A stretch of 17,961 bases of DNA from Candidatus Thorarchaeota archaeon (GCA_048882485.1 JBHLRP010000063.1:1-17961); one strand, 5' to 3'; shown: positions 5,717-17,961, numbered from the stretch's first letter. Notes: a model not told the origin generated them from the letters alone. Numbers and translations are program-made.

Positions 5717-5920
5717 ATGCAATTCGCACAACCTGAGTATATGGACACATTCTTCCAGTACATATTCGGCTTCTTTGACCAGCTATTCGCGACACCCCTG
5801 CAGCCTTATATTCAATGGGGACCAGGAGACTGGTTCTTCGTAATCTATACCCTATTTTGGATAGTTGTGGTGGCAGTAGTCCGGAGACGCGGCGGTCATA
5901 GAAGCACGTATCAAGTCTAG
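5717..5920 (+). CDS. Small single-pass membrane protein (67 aa)
   Basis: AGGTGA RBS upstream; hydrophobic stretch WFFVIYTLFWIVVVAVV followed by RRR. Confidence 0.65.
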   Translation: MQFAQPEYMDTFFQYIFGFFDQLFATPLQPYIQWGPGDWFFVIYTLFWIVVVAVVRRRGGHRSTYQV

Positions 5921-6064: not shown

Positions 6065-6643
6065 ATGCACAAACTCCTCCTAGAAATCCCAACTCTCCTA
6101 GAATCCGAAACCTTGATTGTCAGGAAATTTGAAAGAAGCGACGGAAAAGCCCTCCTAGCCTTGTTGGAACGCAACAGCAACAGAGAGTTTCTCAGAGAGG
6201 CTGCTAACGAAGTAGATGACATCAAGACACTAGATGATGCAGAAATCGATGTCAGAGAACATGCAGCTGAATGGGAATCCCGAAAGAGGTTTGTAATGGG
6301 AATTTGGCTAAAGGCTACAGGTGAATATGTAGGACAGATTTGGATTGAACCAAAGAACTGGGAAGTACCATCATTCGAACTCGGCTACTACATTGATCAG
6401 GGCTATGCCCGCAAAGGGATAGCAACTGAAGCAGCCAGACGGGCATTGAGATTCCTATTCCAAGACTTGAAGGCTCACAAAGTGATAATCATAACTCGCG
6501 ATACAAATGAGAGGAGTTGGAAACTGGCAGAAAGATTGGGATTCAAGAGGGAGGGACATCATCGAGAGTGCAATATAGGGGATGGAAAGCGTTGGGGTCT
6601 TTTCTACTATGGAATGTTGAAATCTGAGTTCAAGAGTGCTTAA
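6065..6643 (+). CDS. RimJ/RimL-type GNAT N-acetyltransferase
   Basis: FELGYYIDQGYARKGIATEAA, TNERSWKLAERLGFKREG. ATG 6065 (MHKLLLEIP) preferred over TTG 6032. Confidence 0.92.
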   Translation: MHKLLLEIPTLLESETLIVRKFERSDGKALLALLERNSNREFLREAANEVDDIKTLDDAEIDVREHAAEWESRKRFVMGIWLKATGEYVGQIWIEPKNWEVPSFELGYYIDQGYARKGIATEAARRALRFLFQDLKAHKVIIITRDTNERSWKLAERLGFKREGHHRECNIGDGKRWGLFYYGMLKSEFKSA

Positions 6644-9310: not shown

Positions 9311-9387
9311 GCCGCGGTAGATCAGCCAGGGAGATCGCACGGCTGAAGACCGTGTTGTCCGCGGTTCAAATCCGCGCCGCGGCACCA
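9311..9387 (+). tRNA. tRNA-Phe(GAA), intronless, CCA encoded
   Basis: Acceptor GCCGCGG/CCGCGGC, D stem GATC/GATC, anticodon stem CACGG/CCGTG with loop CT-GAA-GA (anticodon 9345-9347), T arm CGCGG-TTCAAAT-CCGCG, ACCA end. Confidence 0.97.
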
Positions 9388-9495
9388 TTCATTCTAAATG
9401 TCTTTCCAGAGTACAGTTGTCTTCTTTATGGGCTTGAAAGAAGGCGCAACATCAACACTAATTCGATTGTTTAATCATGCTCAACAGGTGTAGAA

Positions 9496-9951
9496 ATGCG
9501 CAGGCTCAATCCAAAGAAACTCCATGTTCGCTATAATTCACCAACTTCAGAAGAAGACCCAATTCATCCAAGATGCTATACATTAACACATTCAGATCGA
9601 ACTGGCGATCTCTTTCTCACAGTTGGACCAGAATATGATAAGAAGCAAATTCGAGGACTTTATACACGCCTCATGCGAGATGAAGTCGTTGCTGAGTGGA
9701 GGGATGGCGAAGAAGTGTCAGAACTTCATGTTCATTGCGAAGTAGGTAGAGGACTTGGTTCAGCTAAGATGAGAGAGAACATCTTTCGCAGAGAACTCGA
9801 TTTGGTTCTAGAAGCATTCTGTTATGGTAATCGTCAGTTTTTCGAAAAACATCCCATTCTCGATTCTGCAAGAATTCTGGTGCATTTTCATGCACGGAAG
9901 AAGGTAAACGATGAAGTGGAAGATTGGGGTAGGCTAGAGAATTATTCTTGA
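9496..9951 (+). CDS. Staygreen (SGR) family protein, Mg-dechelatase homologue
   Basis: LNPKKLHV, PRCYTLTHSDRTGDLFLTVG, RDEVVAEW, LHVHC, IFRRELDLVLEAFCYG, VHFHA, EDWG. Confidence 0.92.
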   Translation: MRRLNPKKLHVRYNSPTSEEDPIHPRCYTLTHSDRTGDLFLTVGPEYDKKQIRGLYTRLMRDEVVAEWRDGEEVSELHVHCEVGRGLGSAKMRENIFRRELDLVLEAFCYGNRQFFEKHPILDSARILVHFHARKKVNDEVEDWGRLENYS

Positions 9952-9969
9952 CAGTAAATGAGTTAGGGT

Positions 9970-9995
9970 GTTCAAATCCACGCCGCGGCACCATT
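9970..9995 (+). repeat. Direct-repeat copy of tRNA-Phe 3' end (att-like, from G53 through CCA plus TT)
   Basis: GTTCAAATCCACGCCGCGGCACCATT vs GTTCAAATCCGCGCCGCGGCACCATT (9364-9389): 25/26 identical. Confidence 0.93.
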
Positions 9996-10061
9996 TCTTT
10001 TACTCAGACATTTCAAACCCCTCTGATTTCGGCCGCTGTCTTGATTTCAAATAGCATTATG

Positions 10062-11012
10062 TCATGAAAGAAGCGGCATGACTTCTTCACAAAACAGGTT
10101 CATGTCCTCAGGTGCTGTGGCTGGTGCAAATGTCAGAGTGAAGAATCCAAATCCCATCTCAACATAATTCTGAAGTTGCTTAGCTATTTCATTTGGGGTA
10201 CCTATCTTGAAAATCTCCATATCTGCACTAGTCAATCCCAAACCACTTCCTCTTGAGGCCTCAACGGTCTTTCTTATCTTGAACTGGACTTCTTCATTGT
10301 CAGCGCCGAGGAAAAGAATGAAGCCAATCCCCTTTCTTATCTCATCATAGTCCCGACCTACAGACTTGCAGTGGTCCCTCAATGCTTGCAGCTTGCTTTT
10401 GACAACCTCCAAGCTACACCATGGGTGGAAGTGACTGATATCAGCATGCTTTGCTGCTATCTTGAGGGTGACCTTCTCCCCTCCACCTCCAACCAGTATC
10501 GGGATATGCTTCTGCACAGGCGGGGGCGAATTCTGCACATCTCTATACTGGTATAGTTTTCCTTTGTAGTTGGATTTCTCATTGGTAAACATACCCCTGC
10601 AGATTTCAACTGTTTCCTCAAGTCCCCTCATGCGTTCTGTGACAGATGGGAATCTACTGAAGTACGCTTTGAATTCTTGTTCGTGCCATCCTGCGCCTAG
10701 GCCAAGAATCAGCCTTCCATTTGAGATGATATCAATAGTGGTAGCCATCCTTCCTAGGAGAGTCGGCTCTCGATAGCCATAGCAGCTTACCAAAGGAGCC
10801 AGTTTGATTCTCTCAGTCACCCCAGCCAAGCCCGCTAGCGTTGTCCAGCATTCCAAGGGGGGTCCTCTTCCAGTTCCAGGGTCCATAAAATGGTCAGGAA
10901 TAGAGAAGAAATCAAGTCCACAATCTTCAGCTGCTTGACACATCTGTTTCATAGTTTCAAAGTCGCGACTCTCTCCAGATTCATTTATGCCAAACCAAAT
11001 CTCATCAGGCAT
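10062..11012 (-). CDS. LLM-class (probably F420-dependent) oxidoreductase
   Basis: PDHF, LECWTTLAGLAGVTERIKL, DIISNGRLILGLGAGWHEQEF, IPILVGGGGEKVTLKIAAKHAD. ATG 11012 (MPDEIWFG) preferred over 11048. Confidence 0.93.
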   Translation of the reverse strand: MPDEIWFGINESGESRDFETMKQMCQAAEDCGLDFFSIPDHFMDPGTGRGPPLECWTTLAGLAGVTERIKLAPLVSCYGYREPTLLGRMATTIDIISNGRLILGLGAGWHEQEFKAYFSRFPSVTERMRGLEETVEICRGMFTNEKSNYKGKLYQYRDVQNSPPPVQKHIPILVGGGGEKVTLKIAAKHADISHFHPWCSLEVVKSKLQALRDHCKSVGRDYDEIRKGIGFILFLGADNEEVQFKIRKTVEASRGSGLGLTSADMEIFKIGTPNEIAKQLQNYVEMGFGFFTLTFAPATAPEDMNLFCEEVMPLLS

Positions 11013-11206
11013 GTAATCCCAACTTTTGCGAATAATGGCGAACATCAATTAATAAGATGAGGAATCAGATTTACCTTCTGGTACTACTTCGAGAGATGTC
11101 GAGGAGTGTATGGATCCGCACCATAGCACCACTCTCTGACTTCTGAATAGAGAAGACTCAATAGATGTTCAAGTTGACCTTCACAACCAATCTGGAGTTG
11201 GTTACC

Positions 11207-11551
11207 ATGCGTATAGTAAGGGAATCTGAAGCCCTCATACTGGAAACCGTTAAGGGAAGACACGGAGTGATTCTCATAGTTGGCCAAAACGTCATGATGA
11301 TGAAACTCACCGTCGAGCCAGGAATACCGACTCCGCCACATTCTCATCATCATGAGCAAATGGGCCATCTACTGGAAGGGAAGGGCATTCTGTACATTAG
11401 CAACGAGTCCAGAGAGATTGAAGCAGGCACATCATTCTGGATACCTCCAAATGCCCCTCACAACTTTGATGCAACGGGAAATAGACCTGCAGTTCTTATC
11501 GAGGCTTTCAGTCCTCCTCGAGAAGACTATTTGAGTCGTGTCGAAGACTAG
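11207..11551 (+). CDS. Cupin-domain protein
   Basis: PPHSHHHEQMG, IPPNAPH, EAFSPPREDY; ATG 11207 follows GGAG. Confidence 0.92.
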   Translation: MRIVRESEALILETVKGRHGVILIVGQNVMMMKLTVEPGIPTPPHSHHHEQMGHLLEGKGILYISNESREIEAGTSFWIPPNAPHNFDATGNRPAVLIEAFSPPREDYLSRVED

Positions 11552-11714
11552 TACGATTGAATTGACTGCTTGAGAAGCCGGCAATCTACGCCTGAGGATT
11601 TGCCAAGATGCTCATGGAACAATGAACCTTGGATTCAGCCAAAAAGTAGTTATTGAAATCTGCAGAATGTAAATGTTGACGCTAGAATACCTCGGATCTC
11701 ATCTATGATGGAAC

Positions 11715-12149
11715 GTGGCTGCATTGAAGTGGTCTGATTTCGCAAAGTATGCTCTTGTAGGCATGCTTGTTGCTGGTCTTCTTCTTTCAGTTCCATACAG
11801 ACGTGTTGAACAGCGAACTAATTCCTATGAAGTTGCACCACAATCTTGGCACAATGTGTCGTTGGTGTTCGGGGGCCCGATGATCACCTTTGTCACTGTT
11901 GAACTGAATAGGACATCTGAGATTCGCTTCATGTATCCCGATGGCGTGTGGCCAAAGAATGTGCTACTGGCAACATTTACAGGGACCAATGCCATGTATA
12001 ACTACCGCGGCGCTCATTATACAGTTGCTATTGAAGTGGACGCAATTGGCCCGGTTTGGATCAGAGTGTGCTATGTCTATGCTGAAGAAACAGAGGGCAC
12101 CCTCTTCGACAATCCAATTGGATGGCTGAATCCATTCATTTTTCCTTGA
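11715..12149 (+). CDS. Hypothetical membrane-anchored or secreted beta-rich protein
   Basis: N-terminal hydrophobic helix (YALVGMLVAGLLLSV) followed by beta-strand-like sequence; GTG start. Confidence 0.7.
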   Translation: MAALKWSDFAKYALVGMLVAGLLLSVPYRRVEQRTNSYEVAPQSWHNVSLVFGGPMITFVTVELNRTSEIRFMYPDGVWPKNVLLATFTGTNAMYNYRGAHYTVAIEVDAIGPVWIRVCYVYAEETEGTLFDNPIGWLNPFIFP

Positions 12150-12208
12150 CGACACGCCCAGTTGAGGCCTTTGAATTCAATCTCATCAATTCCTGCCCCT
12201 AAATGAAT

Positions 12209-12508
12209 CTACGACTTTTTGCGATTCCTTTTCTTAGCGGTGATTTTGAGGACCACTCCGGCAGAGGTAGGATCAGGACAGCGAACGAACTCTGTGGTGA
12301 CCCCATCCTTGTTAATCACTTTCTCGTAAGGAGTGCCCTTGTAGCTCCACGTAAGTCGACTGTCACACATCAGTACTCGCATCATTGTGTTTGCACTGTC
12401 CAGGAGCCACGGGCATATCTTACCTGCGTCTTCCACATACTTGAACTTCTGGCCCACAGGGTGTGTCCTACATCCACTCTTGAATATCTCAAGTTTGGTT
12501 TCTCTCAT
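12209..12508 (-). CDS. TIGR04076-like small Cys protein
   Basis: GCRTHPVGQKF, KICPW, VRCPDP...VVLKI pattern recalled for this family; ATG 12508 preferred. Confidence 0.7.
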   Translation of the reverse strand: MRETKLEIFKSGCRTHPVGQKFKYVEDAGKICPWLLDSANTMMRVLMCDSRLTWSYKGTPYEKVINKDGVTTEFVRCPDPTSAGVVLKITAKKRNRKKS

Positions 12509-12667
12509 CGAGGAACGACCTCTTCTTTGATGATAAAAGCCCTTCAAAAGCGGTTTCTATTAACTCAGGATTTTCCACTCTAGAAAGGACCATATGCGGA
12601 AAAAGCCAAGGCTTGGCCAGGAGATTTGTAGGTGTCAGAAACTGTATGGGGTATATTTCCGCTAGCA

Positions 12668-12850
12668 ATGGATGAGAGCGACCTCATGATGTTGCTCCTG
12701 TCACTGATCATACTCATTGTGCTTCTCGTGCTGATATTCATCACCTTTCCATTTGAATTGGCGCTACTCATGTCTGCTGGAATCGGACTTGCATTTGTCT
12801 ATGCAGTACATGAAACAAGAAAGCTGGCTAGAGTGAATGCCGAAGAATGA
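12668..12850 (+). CDS. Small two-TM membrane protein
   Basis: MDESDLMMLLLSLIILIVLLVLIFITFPFELALLMSAGIGLAFVYAV followed by a basic tail. Confidence 0.7.
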   Translation: MDESDLMMLLLSLIILIVLLVLIFITFPFELALLMSAGIGLAFVYAVHETRKLARVNAEE

Positions 12851-12880
12851 GAGAAAAAGAGAGAGGGGGCTGATGCCCCC
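12851..12880 (-). terminator. Hairpin plus pyrimidine tract terminating the PadR operon
   Basis: GGGGGC-TGAT-GCCCCC (12865-12880) just past stop 12888, followed on the minus strand by TCTCTCTTTTTCTC. Confidence 0.6.
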
Positions 12881-12887
12881 ATATTGT

Positions 12888-14003
12888 TTAGTAAGAACCT
12901 TGATATCCATCCGAATAGACTCGGCGTTTCTCGTATTCTTCTTCATAGCGGCGATAGAGGCGCCTGCGTCTGCCAAAGGGCCGCTGCCTCTTACCATGGT
13001 CGCCCTGCCACCATAGACCCCTGCCACTCTGAAGATGCATTGGAACCTTCGTCAGGTTGACAATGACCTTCCAAGTGTTGGTCACGACTATGATGAATAT
13101 GATGAAGATCCATATCCAGTCGAATGGTACGAAGGGAATCCCGTTGTCTATGAAGAAGGTCTCCAGGTCAATTAGACCCCAGGTCATTCCATCAATACTG
13201 CCATAGAGGTAGTCTGTAGGCCAGCCGACGTTGATAAGACCCATTGCCAACAGGATCGAGGCTATTCCCAGCACTGCTTCGAAGATCAGATTGAGGTTGT
13301 TCTCGCCAGCCACCAGAAACATGCCACCCTTGACAGCACCCAAGAATAACAGCGCTACTACGGGTCCCACGAAAGGAACGAATGCAGGAGTGTAGAGAGC
13401 TTGGATTGTTGGGTGGAGTAGGACTATTCCGAAAATAATCCCAAAGAACACATCACCTGCTGCATCAGACCTTGACTTGGGCTTGAAGCCCTCACTGCCT
13501 ATGCCGAGGAAGCCCTCGAGTGCTGTCCTTTCAGTCGGCAACTTGTTTCTATCAGCCAGGGAGATTCCACCGATTATCAACATGACAAAAATCACGTTGA
13601 CCACTATCATGATTGGCAGTGACGCGGGGAAGTTCTCTATCTCAGAGATGACTCCTAGGGGAACAAGTAGAGCATTGCCTACTACGTAGGATCCGACAAT
13701 GAATGCGGCTCCAACTCCAATCAGGACAAGTAGCATTCTCATCACAGGCTGGGCATATTCAGCAGGAACAGGTCCAACCTTCTTGCCGCTATCCGCATAC
13801 TCGCTCGCCACGGTCTTGGGCTCACCCATCCGCTCAATCGCCATGAGGGTTGAGCCTGGGGTCATGATCCCACTCCCTATAGACTCAGCAGACTCAATGA
13901 GGTGAGTGCGAATCTCGCGGAGAACATCCTCACTACCAATGGGCAAATATACCTTGACACGCTCAAGATACTCATCAATGAGCTTCATTGGATCCTTGGT
14001 CAT
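12888..14003 (-). CDS. HAAS-like signalling domain multi-pass membrane protein (PadR partner)
   Basis: N-terminal IDEYLERVKVYLP...DVLREIRTHLIE...AIERMGEPKTVASEY, then about 6 TM segments; overlaps PadR stop (ATGA). Confidence 0.85.
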   Translation of the reverse strand: MTKDPMKLIDEYLERVKVYLPIGSEDVLREIRTHLIESAESIGSGIMTPGSTLMAIERMGEPKTVASEYADSGKKVGPVPAEYAQPVMRMLLVLIGVGAAFIVGSYVVGNALLVPLGVISEIENFPASLPIMIVVNVIFVMLIIGGISLADRNKLPTERTALEGFLGIGSEGFKPKSRSDAAGDVFFGIIFGIVLLHPTIQALYTPAFVPFVGPVVALLFLGAVKGGMFLVAGENNLNLIFEAVLGIASILLAMGLINVGWPTDYLYGSIDGMTWGLIDLETFFIDNGIPFVPFDWIWIFIIFIIVVTNTWKVIVNLTKVPMHLQSGRGLWWQGDHGKRQRPFGRRRRLYRRYEEEYEKRRVYSDGYQGSY

Positions 14004-14359
14004 TGTGTTTCGACCCCCGTTGTGATGTCTCTCATCTCATGCGAGAGGACATTCCAGGTCTGCGCCATCATCTGAAGAGCTGTGCGTCCTTCATCTGTCA
14101 AACCGTAATATTTCTTGGGCTTTGTTGGATCTTCATAGTCCCACTCAGACACCAACAAGCCACGTTTCTCCATCCGTCTCAGCAGAGGATAGACAGTACC
14201 TTGTTCGAGCTGCAAGAAGGAGACCTTCTGCTCCAATCTCTTCACAAGCTCGTAACCATAAGCGGGCTCATCATCGAGAAGAGCCAGTATCGCGAGAGTG
14301 ACTGCGCCGCGCTTCACTTCTTTAGCCCACCTGTCCATTTCTTGGTCTGCTTTTGACAT
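14000..14359 (-). CDS. PadR-family transcriptional regulator
   Basis: ILALLDDEPAYGYELVKRL, GTVYPLLRRMEKRGLL, PKKYYGLTDEGR; ATG 14359 preferred. Confidence 0.95.
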   Translation of the reverse strand: MSKADQEMDRWAKEVKRGAVTLAILALLDDEPAYGYELVKRLEQKVSFLQLEQGTVYPLLRRMEKRGLLVSEWDYEDPTKPKKYYGLTDEGRTALQMMAQTWNVLSHEMRDITTGVETQ

Positions 14360-14370
14360 CAGTTTCACCA

Positions 14371-14454
14371 GAGTTGTATTGCTTTGTATTGTGCATCATT
14401 GTGCATCACACTATACTGTGTATAATATAGTGCTATGCAATATTTACTTATAAA
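14371..14454 (-). promoter_or_regulatory. PadR promoter with palindromic operator and phased repeats
   Basis: Minus-strand TTTATAA at 14448-14454; CACTATA-N10-TATAGTG at 14409-14432; ATTGTGCATC x2 at 14388-14407; TTGTATTG x2 at 10-bp spacing. Confidence 0.6.
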
Positions 14455-14498
14455 TGTTACTAGGTAGGCAAGAGAATTTGAGAATGCAAAAGGAAATG

Positions 14499-15629
14499 TC
14501 AGGTGTCCTCATTCGGAGTTTCATCTTCAGCAATACGCTTTTTGGACCGCTGGCGCAACGCAGAGAGTCGAGATCTCAGCATCAACATGAATGGGACCTT
14601 CATTTCGGACTCTTCACTTATCTCTCCATCTTCTTCTTCCAGGGGTTCAATTGCAGGAACGTACTGAAGCAGAACCAATCCGATGACAAATGTGGCGGGA
14701 AATGGTATGACTAATAAATTCTGCAAAAATACAATTGCGAACAGCATATAGATGACGGATGGTATCTGCATGGAGAACCCTGTGATATAGGCCGTCCTCT
14801 TGCTTCCTCTACCTAGCACATATCTCACTACTGTCCATACGAAAAGCAAGTTTGCAAGAGAGACTGCAATGGAAATGCCGTATGTTGCCCAAGCAAATGG
14901 ATCTTGGATAGTGACCGCGAAGGTGCTGTATGGAACTCCTATGTATCTCGAGTAATCGAACAGTAAGAGAAAGCCCGCAAATGTAAAGGGTGAATATATA
15001 GTAGAGAAAGAAGGGCCAGCTTGGCTCAGGACCATAGCAGGAAGAACGAGTGTACAAAGGAGTAGAAAAAGGCTTACACTCTTTGGTGAGAGAATCACGT
15101 CCTTCAAGCTTCTACGCATTTCATCCGTATTCCTCGTTGGAACAGAGTCGCAGTGCCATGCAACGGACGGCAGCAGAATCAAACCAATGAAGAGTAGACT
15201 GCAGTAGCCAACTGAAACTGGTGAATTCGTAGCAATATCGAACACATGCGCTGACCCAACGGAAAAGAATTGTATGAACAAGTAGATTGGATAGGCAAGA
15301 AGAACAAGTCCAGAGAACAGCGCAGAGAAACGAGGAAATGATTCACTGTCATGTATGTCTAGCCTCAGCTTGAAACCAAAGGCAAGTAGACCCAGCAAAA
15401 GGTTTAGTGGATACTGAAGCAGGTACCACCGGAATAGAGTGCGATATTCCTCCCCTGTGTATGTTTGGAGAAAGTAGCTATCGTTGGAGGCGGTAATACT
15501 CGTTCCTGTCGAATCATTGCTGAAATAGAGAGATAGGGGGATAAGCAAAATGATTAACAACCGCAGGCCATTCCAGAATATCGACTTGAGAATCCTCTTC
15601 AATGCATCGCCTGATTTTAGCATCTCCAA
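14499..15629 (-). CDS. Hypothetical polytopic membrane protein
   Basis: 376-aa ORF with about 8-9 hydrophobic segments and an acidic-then-basic C-terminal tail; G-rich RBS-like AAGGGGGA upstream. Confidence 0.85.
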   Translation of the reverse strand: MEMLKSGDALKRILKSIFWNGLRLLIILLIPLSLYFSNDSTGTSITASNDSYFLQTYTGEEYRTLFRWYLLQYPLNLLLGLLAFGFKLRLDIHDSESFPRFSALFSGLVLLAYPIYLFIQFFSVGSAHVFDIATNSPVSVGYCSLLFIGLILLPSVAWHCDSVPTRNTDEMRRSLKDVILSPKSVSLFLLLCTLVLPAMVLSQAGPSFSTIYSPFTFAGFLLLFDYSRYIGVPYSTFAVTIQDPFAWATYGISIAVSLANLLFVWTVVRYVLGRGSKRTAYITGFSMQIPSVIYMLFAIVFLQNLLVIPFPATFVIGLVLLQYVPAIEPLEEEDGEISEESEMKVPFMLMLRSRLSALRQRSKKRIAEDETPNEDT

Positions 15630-16020
15630 ATCCCCCTTGTGAATTACATGTTTAAAATCACTTCTTCAGGTCCTCCAAACGCCTGCATTGGCCGAATAGA
15701 TATTGATAAGTGAGACGCCTCGTTGTCAGGCGAAGAATCAAGGTCATCATTGAGATGCCGGACCGACTGAATCCATGAAGCGGTTCTCAAAGCCGTCATA
15801 AATCGATCAGTGAGTTCGATTCTCGCCGCGACAGATTTGTTGGTGATGTGATTCTGTATGCAGTCGTTGGCTTCTGCAGTCAGACATGCATAGATGGATG
15901 CTGGACTCATGAACCACAGCATCATGACCTTCCTCTTGGGTGCCCTGAAACTACAATGACTCTACCCTAAAACCCGCATTTGATGAAATAAAGCTTTGCT
16001 CAGTAAGTGAATGGTTGAGT

Positions 16021-16045
16021 AATACTTGCAAAAACCGCAAGTATT
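16021..16045. repeat. Perfect 9-bp inverted repeat upstream of dut
   Basis: AATACTTGC-AAAAACC-GCAAGTATT. Confidence 0.6.
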
Positions 16046-16095
16046 TGTGAGAGAACGAACGAAAGCATAGTAACCAAATCCAAGGTGCCAGAGAT

Positions 16096-16542
16096 ATGGG
16101 AAACGATCCAGTCATTGTTGCGGTTAAACTTCACCATCCTGATGCAAAGGTACCAAGGCTGGCGAATCAGGGAGATGTAGCATTCGATTTGTACTCAGTC
16201 GAAGATGTGACATTGAAACCGGGGGAGTGGCATGCAGTGGCCACCGGAATCTCCCTCGAGATAGCTCCCGGCTATGAGGGGCAAGTGAGGCCGAGAAGTG
16301 GCTTGGCACTGAAACATGGTGTGACAGTTCTCAATGCACCAGGCACCATAGACAGTGGCTACCGTGGTGAAGTTAAGTCAATCATGATTAATCACGGGAA
16401 AGAGCCCTTCAAGATAACCAAGGGAATGAGGATCTCTCAACTGGCTATTCGTGCTGTTCCCAAGGCTCTCTTTGAGGCTGTCGATGACCTTGAAGAGTCT
16501 GAACGGGGAGAGGGGGGCTTCGGTAGCACGGGAATGAAATGA
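16096..16542 (+). CDS. dut: dUTP diphosphatase (trimeric dUTPase)
   Basis: All five motifs: AFDL, RPRSGLA, GTIDSGYRGE, RISQL, RGEGGFGSTG. Confidence 0.97.
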   Translation: MGNDPVIVAVKLHHPDAKVPRLANQGDVAFDLYSVEDVTLKPGEWHAVATGISLEIAPGYEGQVRPRSGLALKHGVTVLNAPGTIDSGYRGEVKSIMINHGKEPFKITKGMRISQLAIRAVPKALFEAVDDLEESERGEGGFGSTGMK

Positions 16543-16558
16543 GCGTCTTGTCGCAATG

Positions 16559-16566
16559 TTTTTAAT
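16559..16566 (+). promoter_or_regulatory. TATA-like box for tRNA-Val
   Basis: TTTTTAAT 30-37 nt upstream of the mature 5' end. Confidence 0.55.
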
Positions 16567-16620
16567 CGACATCATTGGTCATGACGAACCTGAATGGGCC
16601 GGTGGTCTAGCCCGGCTATG

Positions 16621-16652
16621 AACAAATCGGAATCATTCCGATAGGTTGGAAA
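16621..16652 (+). other. tRNA intron 1, 32 nt, non-canonical D-arm position (23/24; 24/25 gives the same product)
   Basis: Removal restores the D stem. Relaxed BHB: central GCTA(16615-18)/TGGA(16647-50) pairs 3 of 4, bulges TG|A and AA|A, inner pairs AC/GT, then hairpin ATCGGAA-TCA-TTCCGAT. Confidence 0.8.
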
Positions 16653-16666
16653 ATACCGCATTGACA

Positions 16667-16696
16667 TGCGAGCCTGACTCCCACGCACGCTCAAAC
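16667..16696 (+). other. tRNA intron 2, 30 nt, canonical 37/38 position
   Basis: Strict BHB: central helix TTGA(16661-64)/TCAA(16691-94), bulges CA|T and AC|G, inner helix GCG/CGC, outer helix is the anticodon stem. The junction is independently matched by the intronless copy at 17645. Confidence 0.93.
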
Positions 16697-16747
16697 GTGC
16701 GGTGGTCACGTGTTCAAATCACGTCCGGCCCACCATCTTTTGCCAAT

Positions 16748-17599
16748 CTAGTCCAAGATTCGAGTCAGTGTCGACGTTCCGCCGCCCCAACTAATAGGAT
16801 AGGTACGAATAATTAATGGAACGCCATTCTCGTACGATACATCTGCATCCCAACCTGGAGCGCCAGTACAACCTATAGAAATCCATCCGAATAGTAAGTA
16901 ATCACCATAGGATTTTGAGAACCAAGGATCCTGAACTCTTGAACCGAACCCACCACGAGGACTATCGTAAAATAGTCTGTCAATGTAGTTCCAATCGCCT
17001 ATGGGTAGAAGTGCGTGTGAAAACAGGCTTTTAGCATCATTTTCAATATCTGGACTAATACTACTACCATTCTCATAGACGGCACTGGCTTTCACATGAT
17101 TCACCAGAGATTCGCAAAATGCCCTACTGTCACAGTACAACGGAATTTCAGGAAGGCTCTCAATAGTAAAGACGATAATCGAGTTGTTCAACTCCAACAG
17201 ATAGTAGTCGAGGAATTCGCCCCCATAATATTCAGACGTGGATTCAACACTATATGAAAACTGATCGCCTTCTTCAATGCCCCAGTAGAGATTACCCGAA
17301 TAGCTAACTGCATGGAATACCATCGCTAGAGATACAAGATTGACTACAAGAATTGCAGCTACAATTTGTTTCCACCGTGTGCCAAGATGACTTTCCAATG
17401 CCATTCTTGCGTTGATGCGGTTTCTGAAAAGCAGGATAATTGCAGCTGATAGAATAACAAGCGGAGAGAGAATAACGGAGAGCGAGAACATCCATAGAGT
17501 TCCAGCGGTATAAAGAAGGATTGGACTGATTAGAATCCCAGATATTATGAATATGCATGCATAGTATGCTCTTGCTGCATGTTCGGATCTATTATTCAC
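16748..17599 (-). CDS. Hypothetical protein, 3 N-terminal TM helices plus probable extracellular domain
   Basis: 283-aa ORF with GTG start; three hydrophobic helices, then WGIEEGDQFSY...LPEIP...LLPIGDW...GVP. Confidence 0.85.
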   Translation of the reverse strand: MNNRSEHAARAYYACIFIISGILISPILLYTAGTLWMFSLSVILSPLVILSAAIILLFRNRINARMALESHLGTRWKQIVAAILVVNLVSLAMVFHAVSYSGNLYWGIEEGDQFSYSVESTSEYYGGEFLDYYLLELNNSIIVFTIESLPEIPLYCDSRAFCESLVNHVKASAVYENGSSISPDIENDAKSLFSHALLPIGDWNYIDRLFYDSPRGGFGSRVQDPWFSKSYGDYLLFGWISIGCTGAPGWDADVSYENGVPLIIRTYPISWGGGTSTLTRILD

Positions 17600-17644
17600 A
17601 CTCTTTCGTAAGGTAATTAATTCACTTTACCTTTTTTGGAATTG

Positions 17645-17693
17645 ATTGACAGTGCGGTGGTCACGTGTTCAAATCACGTCCGGCCCACCATCT
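17645..17693 (+). repeat. Intronless copy of tRNA-Val 3' half (A31 to CCA plus TCT), att-like
   Basis: ATTGACA|GTGCGGTGGTCACGTGTTCAAATCACGTCCGGCCCACCATCT equals 16660-16666 joined directly to 16697-16738; 49/49 identical to the spliced sequence plus trailer. Confidence 0.96.
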
Positions 17694-17761
17694 ACTTCTG
17701 TGTGAATTGCCAACAGCTGACCATGAGCAAATTCTGCTCGATTGTAAAATCATATGGGCAG

Positions 17762-17961
17762 CTAAGGCCAATTGCATCCATCAGAATTATCATTGTCTGC
17801 TATCGTTACTGTTGCACCACTCATAGTATCTTCAATATTGATTCCGAAGTGATTTCCGTATATTGTATTTGATGTGATGATGATTCTGTATGACACCTCA
17901 GCTTTGATAGCATCTCCGTCGTTGTTTGTGATAGTATTGTTATGTATCACTGCATTTGTTA
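17762..17961 (-). CDS. C-terminal part of a right-handed parallel beta-helix (NosD/CASH-like) repeat protein, starting beyond the window
   Basis: Frame is open to the window edge: TNAVIHNNTITNNDGDAIKAEVSYRIIITSNTIYGNHFGINIE with the I.NN.I..N...GI.I repeat pattern. Confidence 0.7.
   Translation of the reverse strand, partial: TNAVIHNNTITNNDGDAIKAEVSYRIIITSNTIYGNHFGINIEDTMSGATVTIADNDNSDGCNWP

Follow-up and report, generated by a model that had tools for sequence, protein, structure and literature searches.

Organization of the two tRNA loci

The window, by which we mean the whole 17,961-nucleotide stretch of Candidatus Thorarchaeota DNA that was analyzed, contains a tRNA-Phe(GAA) and a tRNA-Val(GAC) gene (Table 1). 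Both tRNAs are intact and each is followed by one ORF and then by a direct copy of its own 3' end, with repeat spacings of 606 bp (Phe) and 955 bp (Val), which confirms the architecture described in the original prediction. A cmscan search of the window with E values up to 1 returned tRNA only and no other Rfam family. The tRNA-Val(GAC) was missed by both ARAGORN and Rfam.

Table 1. Features of the tRNA-Phe and tRNA-Val loci in the window.
Feature	Position	Strand	Basis or content
tRNA-Phe(GAA), encoded CCA	9311-9387	+	ARAGORN; Rfam RF00005, 61.4 bits
Phe cassette 1 (582 bp)	9388-9969	+	Single gene 9496-9951 (+)
Distal tRNA-Phe 3' end copy (G + T loop to CCA)	9970-9993	+	23/24 nt identical
Tentative second Phe cassette	9994-11131	+	Luciferase-like monooxygenase gene 10062-11048 (-)
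tRNA-Val(GAC), two introns, TCT trailer	16596-16738	+	Manual reading and relatives; anchors Val array
tRNA-Val(GAC) D-arm intron	~16622-16653	+	Manual reading against relatives
tRNA-Val(GAC) canonical 37/38 intron	~16667-16696	+	Manual reading against relatives
tRNA-Val(GAC) CCA	16733-16735	+	Gene end 16735, then TCT trailer
Val cassette 1	16739-17644	-	Single gene 16748-17599 (-), 283 aa
Distal tRNA-Val 3' copy, intron-less	17645-17693	+	ATTGACA and exact 42 nt 17652-17693 (position 38 to CCA, plus TCT)
Val cassette 2, start	17694-17961	-	Continues past window into contig C40 (1-842), via 77-mer contig links

The tRNA-Phe gene is the anchor, an attB-like site, of the Phe array. The sole ORF of the Phe interval occupies all of it and encodes a Staygreen-family protein of 151 aa (Pfam PF12638, 1e-45). 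When extended to 33 nt, the Phe repeat displayed 88% identity, and weaker similarity continued as far as position 10002. The T-arm of the distal copy resembled the GTGTG/CACAC T-arm of tRNA-Phe in G002, G014 and L002, as would be expected if the copy is the displaced original 3' end. The intergenic gap after the luciferase-like monooxygenase gene that comes next (Pfam PF00296, 2e-50) contains a degenerate copy of the Phe 3' end (11109-11131, 15/23 nt) with a pyrimidine-rich trailer. This copy came from a scan allowing up to eight mismatches, at which threshold the control gave about one match per strand; therefore, the evidence for a second Phe cassette is weak and its assignment is tentative.

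The exact Val repeat of 42 nt (16697-16738 and 17652-17693) starts at the first base past the 37/38 intron, and if the intron is disregarded identity reaches 7 nt further. The intron-less distal copy matches the form of the tRNA-Val gene in relatives of the same genus: the anticodon-loop intron was absent from G005, G010, G001, G002, G007 and G012, and present in G013. The only ORF of the Val interval again occupies it entirely. Its product, a protein without a match in Pfam or NCBIfam, has N-terminal hydrophobic stretches, which on inspection of the translation look like transmembrane segments, and a C-terminal domain of about 180 aa. Val cassette 2 likewise has one minus-strand gene, for a beta-helix/NosD-like protein of about 304 aa (Pfam PF13229/PF05048). 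A third tRNA-Val 3' copy (C40:843-887) comes next and native flank follows it, with C40:843-2387 being 93.9% identical to the DNA directly 3' of tRNA-Val in G005.

Copies of tRNA 3' ends across the genome

The genome contains at least 40 orphan tRNA 3' copies behind about 12 tRNAs. All of them are on the strand of their tRNA, and none was found on the opposite strand or in reversed-sequence controls. With 31 tRNA 3' cores and up to three mismatches, 66 genome matches were obtained versus none with the reversed cores. For 35 strictly defined tRNAs, 15 same-strand copies were located downstream within 12 kb, with none on the opposite strand and none in the control. Exactly one ORF (at least 60 aa) was present in 11 of these 15 spacers, and the median spacing was 617 bp; some larger multi-gene spacers measured 2-5 kb and held up to eight ORFs. 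The longest array, that of Gly(CCC), comprises 14 copies (two on contig C103 and 12 on C82), all on the plus strand, while eight matches at up to seven mismatches represent the anchor tRNA and seven copies of the Ala array. In both arrays nearly every intergenic gap contains one copy. Many of the copies are perfect or near-perfect direct repeats of 23-49 nt, and many carry five or six mismatches; the copies degrade with age.

Both units of the window are thus real and belong to a genome-wide and family-wide system. Its hosts are a family of Thor-/Hermodarchaeota-like Asgard archaea, in which many tRNA genes head arrays of compact cassettes with mostly one gene, each cassette being led by a copy of the 3' end of its tRNA. 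As had been anticipated, downstream copies are common across the genome, spacers peak at one gene and tandem arrays occur, reaching 14 copies.

An assembly artefact was considered as a source of the repeats and rejected: they are shorter than the 77-mer overlap used by the assembler and lie inside contigs, and the same architecture was present in independently assembled relatives.

Variation among relatives

Precise empty sites were found in close relatives at both window loci. At the Phe locus, G002 has no cassette 1, and the flank seen here after 9993 directly adjoins its tRNA-Phe. Val cassette 1 is missing at the same site in G005, G002 and G004, while G010 carries a homologue there, and the first cassettes of the Val array differ in G013 and G007. 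The alternative haplotype represented by contig C142 contains a paralogue of the Val cassette 1 gene (63% identical) and an extra 2.2-kb cassette in the Val array.

Phe cassette 1 was also detected in G005, G001, L001 and L002. This Phe-Staygreen unit is old. Its protein is 87-91% identical among the genomes that share it, and L001 has lost half of the distal copy; this unit, at the least, may therefore have become static.

Two assembly bubbles displayed cassettes swapped exactly at the copies. In contig C132, alternative cassettes lie between the Ala copies at 5806 and 11123, and similarity stops and restarts at the copy edges. Cassettes of the Gly array (encoding a nitronate monooxygenase (NMO), VIT1, a GNAT, PEMT, a methyltransferase and others) were also present in G002, G011, G014, G015, G009, G060, G192, G020 and G197. 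Their order varied across genomes and genera and their orientation remained constant. A recognizable copy was located at many of the permuted Gly junctions, and none at up to six mismatches at others. The comparison of orthologous loci proposed in the original prediction thus gave both empty sites and swapped or permuted cargo at the two window loci. The findings that would have spoken against it did not appear either: cargo is variable, other tRNAs show the pattern, and no large integrase-bearing islands with the same genes were seen at the loci examined in relatives.

Cassette cargo and search for recombinases

The cargo consists of ordinary accessory enzymes. Besides Staygreen, the cassettes encode two GNATs, nitronate monooxygenase, VIT1, PEMT/ICMT, beta-helix proteins, luciferase-like oxidoreductases, a solute-binding protein, a beta-lactamase-fold hydrolase, an amidohydrolase and a methyltransferase. 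They include promoter-side DNA, and their genes lie on either strand. Among about 25 annotated cassette ORFs we found no integrase or integrase fragment, no replication gene and no virion gene. Likewise, nine ORFs annotated from four of the 13 independent metagenome contigs were cargo only.

The profiles PF00589, PF16795, PF00239, PF00078 and PF01867 gave no significant match in the 90.5%-complete bin, and integrase, serine recombinase, reverse transcriptase and Cas1 were found neither in the genome nor in the annotated cassettes or annotated metagenome arrays. PF00589, used to seek an IntI-type integrase, had no genome match even at E values up to 10, and a profile built from the integrases of relatives matched only zinc ribbons in this genome. 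An SSV-type partitioned integrase was not detected, since PF16795 was unmatched and the ORFs adjoining the copies are cargo, none of which crosses a copy. The window had originally been read as containing no integrase or remnant, and the genome profile searches agree with that.

Tyrosine recombinases of any kind were present in 11 of the 31 family genomes and absent from 20. Ten integrase loci of relatives were inspected over the stored flank of about 8 kb, which in several cases was cut short on one side by the contig end; neither a tRNA nor a tRNA copy occurred there. A stand-alone tyrosine recombinase co-occurring with the pattern, as originally envisaged, was not found in the 31 family genomes or at the ten integrase loci. 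No viral contig carried the Val or Gly att sequence, and the assembly contained no circular contigs.

Copy boundaries and proposed mode of insertion

Of 36 copies, representing seven tRNA species, 30 lose identity to the tRNA 0-4 nt ahead of the T loop, while in the Val and Tyr copies identity extends to the anticodon loop. This comparison bears out the left boundaries that had been assigned to the two window repeats. Where neighbours differ, the stem/acceptor part of a copy travels together with the downstream cassette (cassettes c1 and c6), as judged from few informative junctions, and cassette c8 departs from the clean rule. No conserved second half-site was found in the DNA just 5' of the copies, where T-stem complementarity was near random expectation, so that a classical tyrosine recombinase would be left with half a core site at internal positions. 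Folding palindromes of the attC type were not found either: the repeated site is the tRNA segment from the T loop or anticodon loop to CCA, which in the T-loop class contains no hairpin.

We consider it most likely that the arrays arose in successive rounds of conservative site-specific recombination, directed at the T loop or anticodon loop and carried out by an enzyme acting in trans. A small DNA unit, presumably a circular intermediate, would bear a tRNA-like 3' segment that begins at the T loop or anticodon loop and includes CCA and a few trailer bases. Conservative recombination between this unit and the intact tRNA gene would follow, the crossover lying inside the T or anticodon loop. 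The incoming segment would become the new 3' end of the tRNA and the old 3' end would be displaced downstream, behind the cassette; repeated insertion events would build the array. Cassettes could later be lost, replaced or reinserted whole at the same sites with constant orientation. Since neither the arrays nor the genome bin encode a recombinase, the enzyme is placed in trans.

Alternatively, the tRNA-derived repeats and the conserved tRNA 3' ends might serve as portable homology for RadA-type general recombination, with no dedicated recombinase, and cassettes would be looped out, exchanged between strains and reinserted. The negative recombinase search and the 20 of 31 family genomes lacking a tyrosine recombinase agree with such a process, as do the missing second half-site, the many perfect or near-perfect 23-49-nt copies in direct orientation, and the description of bacterial additive tRNA islands in genomes without identifiable mobile elements (PMC7771536). 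However, it leaves unexplained why copies stop at the T loop in seven tRNA species and at the anticodon loop in two others, which are the classical crossover sublocations of tyrosine integrases (PMC8371274), and how a new gene would first acquire a tRNA-like head. A repeat of 23 nt is also a short substrate, and many copies carry five or six mismatches. The stem/acceptor part staying with the downstream cassette suggests that crossover takes place at a fixed position, the 5' edge of the copy. We therefore infer site-specific recombination and regard a purely homology-driven origin as rather unlikely.

The units could also be remnants of conventional kilobase-scale integrative elements with their own integrase, stacked in tandem and trimmed by deletions to one gene. 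Tandem integration and post-integration loss of the integrase gene are documented in archaea (PMC8371274), partial tRNAs and degenerated elements are strewn in Prochlorococcus islands (bioRxiv 10.1101/2020.12.28.424599), and the 2-5 kb spacers with up to eight ORFs and the degradation of copies with age would fit. Nevertheless, this explanation is disfavoured and seems improbable. Neither the cassette ORFs nor the nine metagenome ORFs included an integrase fragment, replication gene or virion gene, and spacers most often enclose one intact gene with little room to spare. Other genera contain the same one-gene units with identical boundaries in rearranged order, which independent deletions would not give. 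Moreover, the integrases of relatives do not adjoin tRNAs or copies, and the Val and Gly att sequences were on no viral contig.

Cassettes might also derive from RNA by reverse transcription with a tRNA as primer or template, which would account for the CCA within copies and for the distal Val copy without anticodon-loop intron. This origin is disfavoured as very improbable, since CCA is encoded in the recognized tRNA genes of this genome and hence uninformative, six same-genus genomes with an intron-less tRNA-Val identify the copy as the pre-intron DNA form, no reverse transcriptase was found in the genome, and the cassettes contain promoter-side DNA and genes on either strand.

Comparison with known systems

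The original reading is partly supported: the pattern it described stands, and its core, minimal gene circles moved in trans by a dedicated recombinase, is hypothetical. The system also has more precedent than had been assumed: additive tRNA islands with the same tell-tale repeats have been described in bacteria (PMC7771536). These islands, together with the tycheposon islands, are the nearest ones. In the streamlined marine bacteria Ca. Actinomarinales, additive flexible genomic islands are located at tRNA genes, and their definition of a fixed location, small added cassettes and partial-tRNA repeats describes the present arrays as well (PMC7771536). As in those islands, close strains differ and cassettes are shared between genera (at about 75% identity, a figure for the bacteria), and the Actinomarinales hosts are likewise without identifiable mobile elements (PMC7771536). 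In contrast, the host here is an Asgard archaeon, with one gene per repeat, arrays of up to 14 copies, about a dozen tRNAs and permuted order, whereas the Actinomarinales case was described as an island comparison without such regular arrays (PMC7771536).

Prochlorococcus tycheposons integrate at tRNAs, leave partial tRNAs and push older elements deeper (bioRxiv 10.1101/2020.12.28.424599). The scatter of partial tRNAs through islands and the adaptive gene cargo are shared with the present arrays, but tycheposons carry a tyrosine recombinase and a replication module and their islands contain fragmented integrases, whereas neither an integrase nor a fragment of one was found in the arrays or genome here.

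Many archaeal integrons consist of attC clusters without an integrase (Ghaly et al., bioRxiv 10.1101/2022.02.06.479319). Like integrons, the tRNA arrays hold mainly single-gene accessory cassettes, including GNAT acetyltransferases, with one site per cassette, kept orientation, and content and order that vary between relatives. Unlike in integrons, a tRNA 3' end replaces the folded attC as the site, a tRNA gene replaces the attI beside intI as the dock, genes lie on either strand, apparently with their own upstream region, and there is no IntI.

Streptococcal CIMEs (cis-mobilisable elements) are integrase-less att-flanked units that accumulate at a single attB, and the recombinase that moves them is believed to come from another element. 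They resemble the cassettes, as does tandem accretion generally, in being non-autonomous att-bounded units; however, they are kilobases long, visibly derived from conjugative elements and few per site, and their helper integrase is known.

The direct repeat of the tRNA 3' end distally and the intact tRNA proximally are traits of integrative elements. Archaeal tRNA-integrated elements target the 3' part of the tRNA gene and cross over in its anticodon loop or T loop; they can integrate in tandem, and some have no integrase gene (PMC8371274). The known ones are multi-gene viruses or plasmids, unlike the cassettes, and the SSV-type 'suicidal' integrases split their gene across att, whereas PF16795 was unmatched here.

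The arrays show shuffling of accessory genes in archaea that have not been cultured and whose lineage is near the origin of eukaryotes, with single genes as the shuffled unit at many tRNA sites and no integrase found. The tRNA genes act as integron-like gene-collecting sites for accessory genes, mostly one per unit. It is conceivable, and we propose it tentatively, that this Asgard family possesses a platform equivalent in function to the integron and built on another principle, in which the tRNA 3' end would be both dock and cassette site, one-gene units would be cut out, swapped and put back by a trans-acting recombinase of an unrecognized family, and tRNA introns at the T loop and anticodon loop would evolve to protect the docks. 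If a dedicated enzyme exists, it would represent a new system of site-specific recombination whose sites are very short and portable, and a second, independent invention of integron logic. If there is no enzyme, the conserved tRNA tails would be universal homology handles in gene exchange. Either way, the arrays read out recent gene flow in Asgard populations.

tRNA introns

The tRNA-Phe genes of L001 and G011 contain a T-loop intron, and an intron of the present tRNA-Val lies just 5' of the repeat. Introns at these crossover points would fit pressure on att sites. Protection of integration sites by archaeal tRNA introns is an old idea, for which the arrays offer a concrete setting. It has also been proposed that an attP can act as a vector for tRNA introns (PMC8371274). 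The intron-rich tRNAs of these genomes are overlooked by tRNA finders, and annotation pipelines may call orphan copies pseudo-tRNAs.

Phe and Val units in the window

Both tRNA units in the window agreed in all particulars with the original prediction of an intact tRNA gene, exactly one ORF and a direct copy of the tRNA 3' end, with spacings of 606 bp (Phe) and 955 bp (Val). The predicted repeat starts at the T loop (Phe) and the anticodon loop (Val) were borne out by the limits of identity. The end of tRNA-Phe, from the last T-stem base through CCA, was repeated at 9970-9993 with 23 of 24 bases identical, and a weaker likeness to the tRNA-Phe tail continued from there to 10002. The tRNA-Val contains two introns, one in the D-arm (about 16622-16653) and one at the canonical position 37/38 (about 16667-16696), and was therefore missed by ARAGORN and Rfam. 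Its exact 42-nt repeat (16697-16738 and 17652-17693) began immediately 3' of the anticodon-loop intron and ended 3 nt beyond CCA. The protein encoded by Val cassette 1 looks membrane-anchored, judging by its amino acid sequence.

Features of the Phe and Val units and tRNAs trailed by orphan 3'-end copies in the genome (C-numbers, contigs; C63, the window)
Feature	Location	Strand	Evidence or number of copies
tRNA-Phe(GAA), CCA encoded	9311-9387	+	ARAGORN and Rfam; the sole tRNA found in the window by either program
Staygreen-family protein, full-length, sole ORF of the Phe interval	9496-9951	+	PF12638, 1e-45
tRNA-Val(GAC)	16596-16735	+	Manual reading and comparison with relatives
Val cassette 1 ORF, 283 aa, sole ORF of the interval	16748-17599	-	Translation and family searches; no family match
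Phe copies	Window (C63)		Array of orphan copies
Val copies	Window (C63), extending onto C40/C142		Array of orphan copies
Gly copies	C40		4 orphan copies
Ala copies	C71; C132		Anchor tRNA and 7 copies (at most 7 mismatches) on C71; 3 further copies on C132
Gly(CCC) copies	C103-C82		14 copies
His copy			1 orphan copy
Leu(GAG) copies			2 orphan copies
Arg copy			1 orphan copy
Tyr copies			2 orphan copies
Asp copy			1 orphan copy

The cassettes at the Phe and Val loci are insertions. At the Phe locus, the relative G002 displayed an empty site, the flank found beyond the distal copy in the window adjoining tRNA-Phe directly. The T-arm of the distal copy resembled that of tRNA-Phe in genomes without the cassette, as expected if the copy is the displaced original end. 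Other genes were inserted between tRNA-Phe and Staygreen in G014 and G009, and a different neighbour was found in G011. The Staygreen unit was common to G005, G001 and two named MAGs with a protein identity of 87-91%, and in one of these MAGs the distal copy was half deleted. By these sequence comparisons, the Phe-Staygreen unit is old.

The second Val cassette contained one gene, encoding a beta-helix protein, and extended from 17694 into contig C40, where it ended at another, third copy of the tRNA-Val tail (C40:843-887). Beginning with this copy, the DNA was 93.9% identical to the sequence directly after tRNA-Val in the closest relative, G005. No Val copies were present downstream of tRNA-Val in G002 and in the single-contig genome G004. 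The first Val cassette was different in G013 and G007, while G010 contained a homologue of cassette 1.

Short tandem words (TTGTATTG twice and CATCATTGTGCATCA-like repeats) occur in the A+T-rich gap at 14368-14499. This gap separates two divergent genes without annotation and is possibly a promoter region shared by them.

Copies of tRNA 3' ends across the genome

The genome bin to which the window belongs (G000) comprises 3.96 Mb in 157 contigs with 46% G+C, and is 90.5% complete and 5.8% contaminated. Hermodarchaeota and Thorarchaeota MAGs were its nearest named records, which places it among the Asgard archaea. A search with 31 distinct tRNA 3' cores of 23 nt, allowing at most 3 mismatches, gave 66 genome matches, while the reversed cores gave none. 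The repeats are shorter than the 77-nt overlap of the assembler and are located within contigs, and the same architecture was found in independent assemblies of relatives and in other metagenomes. The copies are therefore neither chance matches nor assembly artefacts.

About a dozen tRNAs were trailed by such copies. Among 35 strictly defined tRNAs, 15 same-strand copies were detected within 12 kb downstream, with none on the opposite strand and none in the reversed control; likewise, all 12 copies by strand on C82 were on the plus strand. The spacers of the strict set had a median of 617 bp and contained just a single ORF (60 aa or longer) in 11 of 15 cases, and the Gly and Ala arrays displayed one copy in almost each intergenic gap. 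Cassette genes were present on both strands, those antisense to the tRNA being commoner (18 versus 11). Shared 77-mers joined C71 to C63, C63 to either C40 or C142, C40 to C20 and C20 to C68, and C103 to C82 and C82 to C106. The window thus lies in an array-dense chromosomal stretch with Ala, Phe, Val, Gly and Leu in this order.

The sole intact tRNA-Gly(CCC) found (C103:1175-1281, minus strand) has the opposite orientation to the 14-copy array (C103:4876, 5481 and C82, plus strand). It is located 3.6 kb from the first array copy, and no intact anchor was found at the expected place. Inversion between sites, loss of the anchor or a misjoin are possible causes.

Many exact 77-nt direct repeats spaced by exactly 177 nt were observed inside genes on 13 contigs (C2, for example at 6350/6527, C5, C9, C15, C16, C19, C23, C25, C33, C35, C40, C68 and C99). 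The shared contig ends are likewise 77 nt long. These repeats look like local assembly artefacts, that is, duplicated 100-nt blocks, rather than biology.

Position of the crossover and exchange of cassettes

In seven tRNA species, 30 of 36 copies lost identity with the parent tRNA 0-4 nt before the T loop. Identity in the Val and Tyr copies was about 25 nt longer and reached the anticodon loop, and the 3' edge of identity was 0-6 nt past CCA. When cassettes c1 and c6 of the Gly(CCC) array had different upstream neighbours in two genomes, each kept the stem/acceptor part of its preceding copy; c8 did not cleanly follow this rule. These alignments fit a crossover located at the copy's 5' edge, by which each cassette would carry its own tRNA-like head.

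Two assembly bubbles, C132 and C142, represent alternative haplotypes. C132 and the Ala array had in common the cassette ahead of copy 5806 as well as the sequence starting at copy 11123, the cassettes between them were different, and similarity broke off and restarted at copy edges. C142 contained a variant of Val cassette 2 and an additional 2.2-kb cassette. Cassettes of the Gly(CCC) array were found again in nine further genomes from two genera, with 70-94% identity, variable order and constant orientation. The nitronate monooxygenase cassette was located ahead of VIT1 in G014, G009 and G060 and behind it in G000, G011, G192 and G020, and c3 preceded c1 in G002. A recognisable copy was present at many of the Gly(CCC) cassette junctions and none (at most 6 mismatches) at others. 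The Gly core was also detected in 13 metagenome contigs, among them several further one-gene arrays. Luciferase-like and beta-helix cargo paralogues shared only 24-30% identity between arrays, giving no sign of recent transfer from one tRNA site to another.

Cargo of the cassettes

The cassettes of G000 encoded Staygreen, two GNAT acetyltransferases, nitronate monooxygenase, an ATC-hydrolase-like protein, VIT1, a PEMT/ICMT methyltransferase, a SAM methyltransferase, beta-helix surface proteins, luciferase-like oxidoreductases, a family-5 solute-binding protein, a beta-lactamase-fold hydrolase, an amidohydrolase and several unknowns. The metagenome arrays additionally encoded an acyltransferase, an aldo/keto reductase, an S41 peptidase and a PD-(D/E)XK nuclease beside an SMC-like ATPase. 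Integrase, replication and virion genes were all absent from the annotated cargo of both. Two unannotated genes neighbouring the Gly array, encoding 493 aa and 236 aa, had no match in Pfam, NCBIfam and PDB sequence searches.

The environmental cassettes L091:1155-2180 and L088:3403-5859, encoding a PD-(D/E)XK nuclease or SMC/AAA ATPase, look like defence-type cargo. A homologue of Staygreen (Mg-dechelatase family) is present here in an Asgard archaeon, and homologues occur widely among Thor-, Hermod- and Heimdall-type MAGs and Anaerolineales. The unannotated cargo family of the Val unit (210-290 aa) is multi-copy and patchy; 32 of the 61 genomes searched in the family contained it, at most six copies being present in any one genome. 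Besides the ORF of Val cassette 1, its members in G000 include C142:936-1796, C40:11517-12074 and C59:5793-6419, one paralogue being placed in the Gly array of C40. The flanks of distant homologues from other genera mostly lacked copies.

Search for a recombinase

No integrase or remnant had been seen in the window, and profile searches of the window, the cassettes and the G000 bin confirmed this. In the bin, PF00589 (tyrosine recombinases) had no match even at E 10, and SSV-type integrases, reverse transcriptase and Cas1 had none either. The sole serine recombinase match was insignificant (E 0.19, 13 bits, under the cut-off). A profile of relatives' integrases matched only zinc ribbons among all stop-to-stop ORFs of G000. 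Tyrosine recombinases were present in only 11 of 31 family genomes, and ten relatives' integrases had no tRNA or copy within the stored flanks. Scans of viral contigs for the att sequences of Val and Gly gave no matches. Mobile elements are often missing from bins, so a recombinase might be encoded by a virus or plasmid outside the bin.

The 20 family genomes (f1) without a tyrosine recombinase match included several that are 97-99% complete. An Xer-type chromosome resolvase is thus not recognisable in any of these 20 genomes.

Origin of the arrays and relation to known systems

The original prediction of a system of one-gene cassettes docked at tRNA 3' ends was supported wherever tested, by copies across the genome, by empty sites and by swapped or permuted cassettes. 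The arrays probably originated by serial conservative recombination of headed one-gene units at tRNA attB sites, followed by unit-by-unit exchange. The crossover would fall within either the T loop or the anticodon loop of the attB site, the incoming DNA would be a one-gene unit with a tRNA-like head, and cassettes would later be exchanged one unit at a time. We infer that circles and an enzyme acting in trans were involved.

Ordinary homologous recombination between the short repeats, the main alternative, accounts for the lack of both an enzyme and a second half-site, but leaves unexplained both the loop-defined boundaries and the first acquisition of a tRNA-like head by a gene; we consider it rather unlikely. 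Decay of conventional elements is disfavoured more strongly, because mobile-element genes are absent from the cargo, the spacing equals one gene and identical units are found again in other orders. An origin by retro-copying is not needed and is very improbable, CCA being genome-encoded in G000. The 'spliced' Val copy, which could be read as a retro-copy, has the same form as the intron-less tRNA-Val gene of six relatives.

Among described systems, the arrays come closest to the additive flexible genomic islands of Ca. Actinomarinales, in which tRNAs are targeted by small cassettes recognisable by direct repeats of partial tRNAs, in genomes with no identifiable mobile elements (PMC7771536), and then to the tycheposon islands of Prochlorococcus. 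Unlike the arrays of G000, tycheposons carry integrases. Integrons have their logic in common with the arrays but not their parts; archaeal integrons, for which Asgard genomes are enriched, are for the most part devoid of the integrase (bioRxiv 10.1101/2022.02.06.479319). No description of one-gene tRNA-tail arrays was found in the consulted papers on Asgard mobile elements or by text searches. The arrays of G000 are tRNA-anchored additive islands, sharpened in Asgard archaea to integron-like one-gene arrays.

Scope within the phylum and tRNA introns

Phylum-wide counts of motif or Gly-core matches did not distinguish arrays from ordinary tRNA sets, and identical 3'-end pairs in other Asgard families were complete isoacceptor tRNA genes rather than fragments. 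The arrays are therefore demonstrated for the family of G000 only. A loosened generic T-loop-to-CCA motif gave mostly noise and was replaced by array-specific scans. Long-intron tRNAs called by ARAGORN on C1, C19 and C29 (300-1000-nt 'introns') were false, having neither CCA nor a second copy, and a 'tRNA-Gly' called on C63 with long introns was the Val 5' part fused to the distal copy.

The anticodon-loop intron of tRNA-Val abuts the repeat on its 5' side in the window and is absent from six genomes of the same genus. The tRNA-Phe of a Hermodarchaeota MAG (L001, 3780-3900) and of G011 (L096, about 900-970) contains an intron of about 29 nt within the T loop (TTCA|intron|AAATC), exactly at the start point of the cassette copies. 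These T-loop and anticodon-loop positions fit introns that disrupt att sites or arrive through them.
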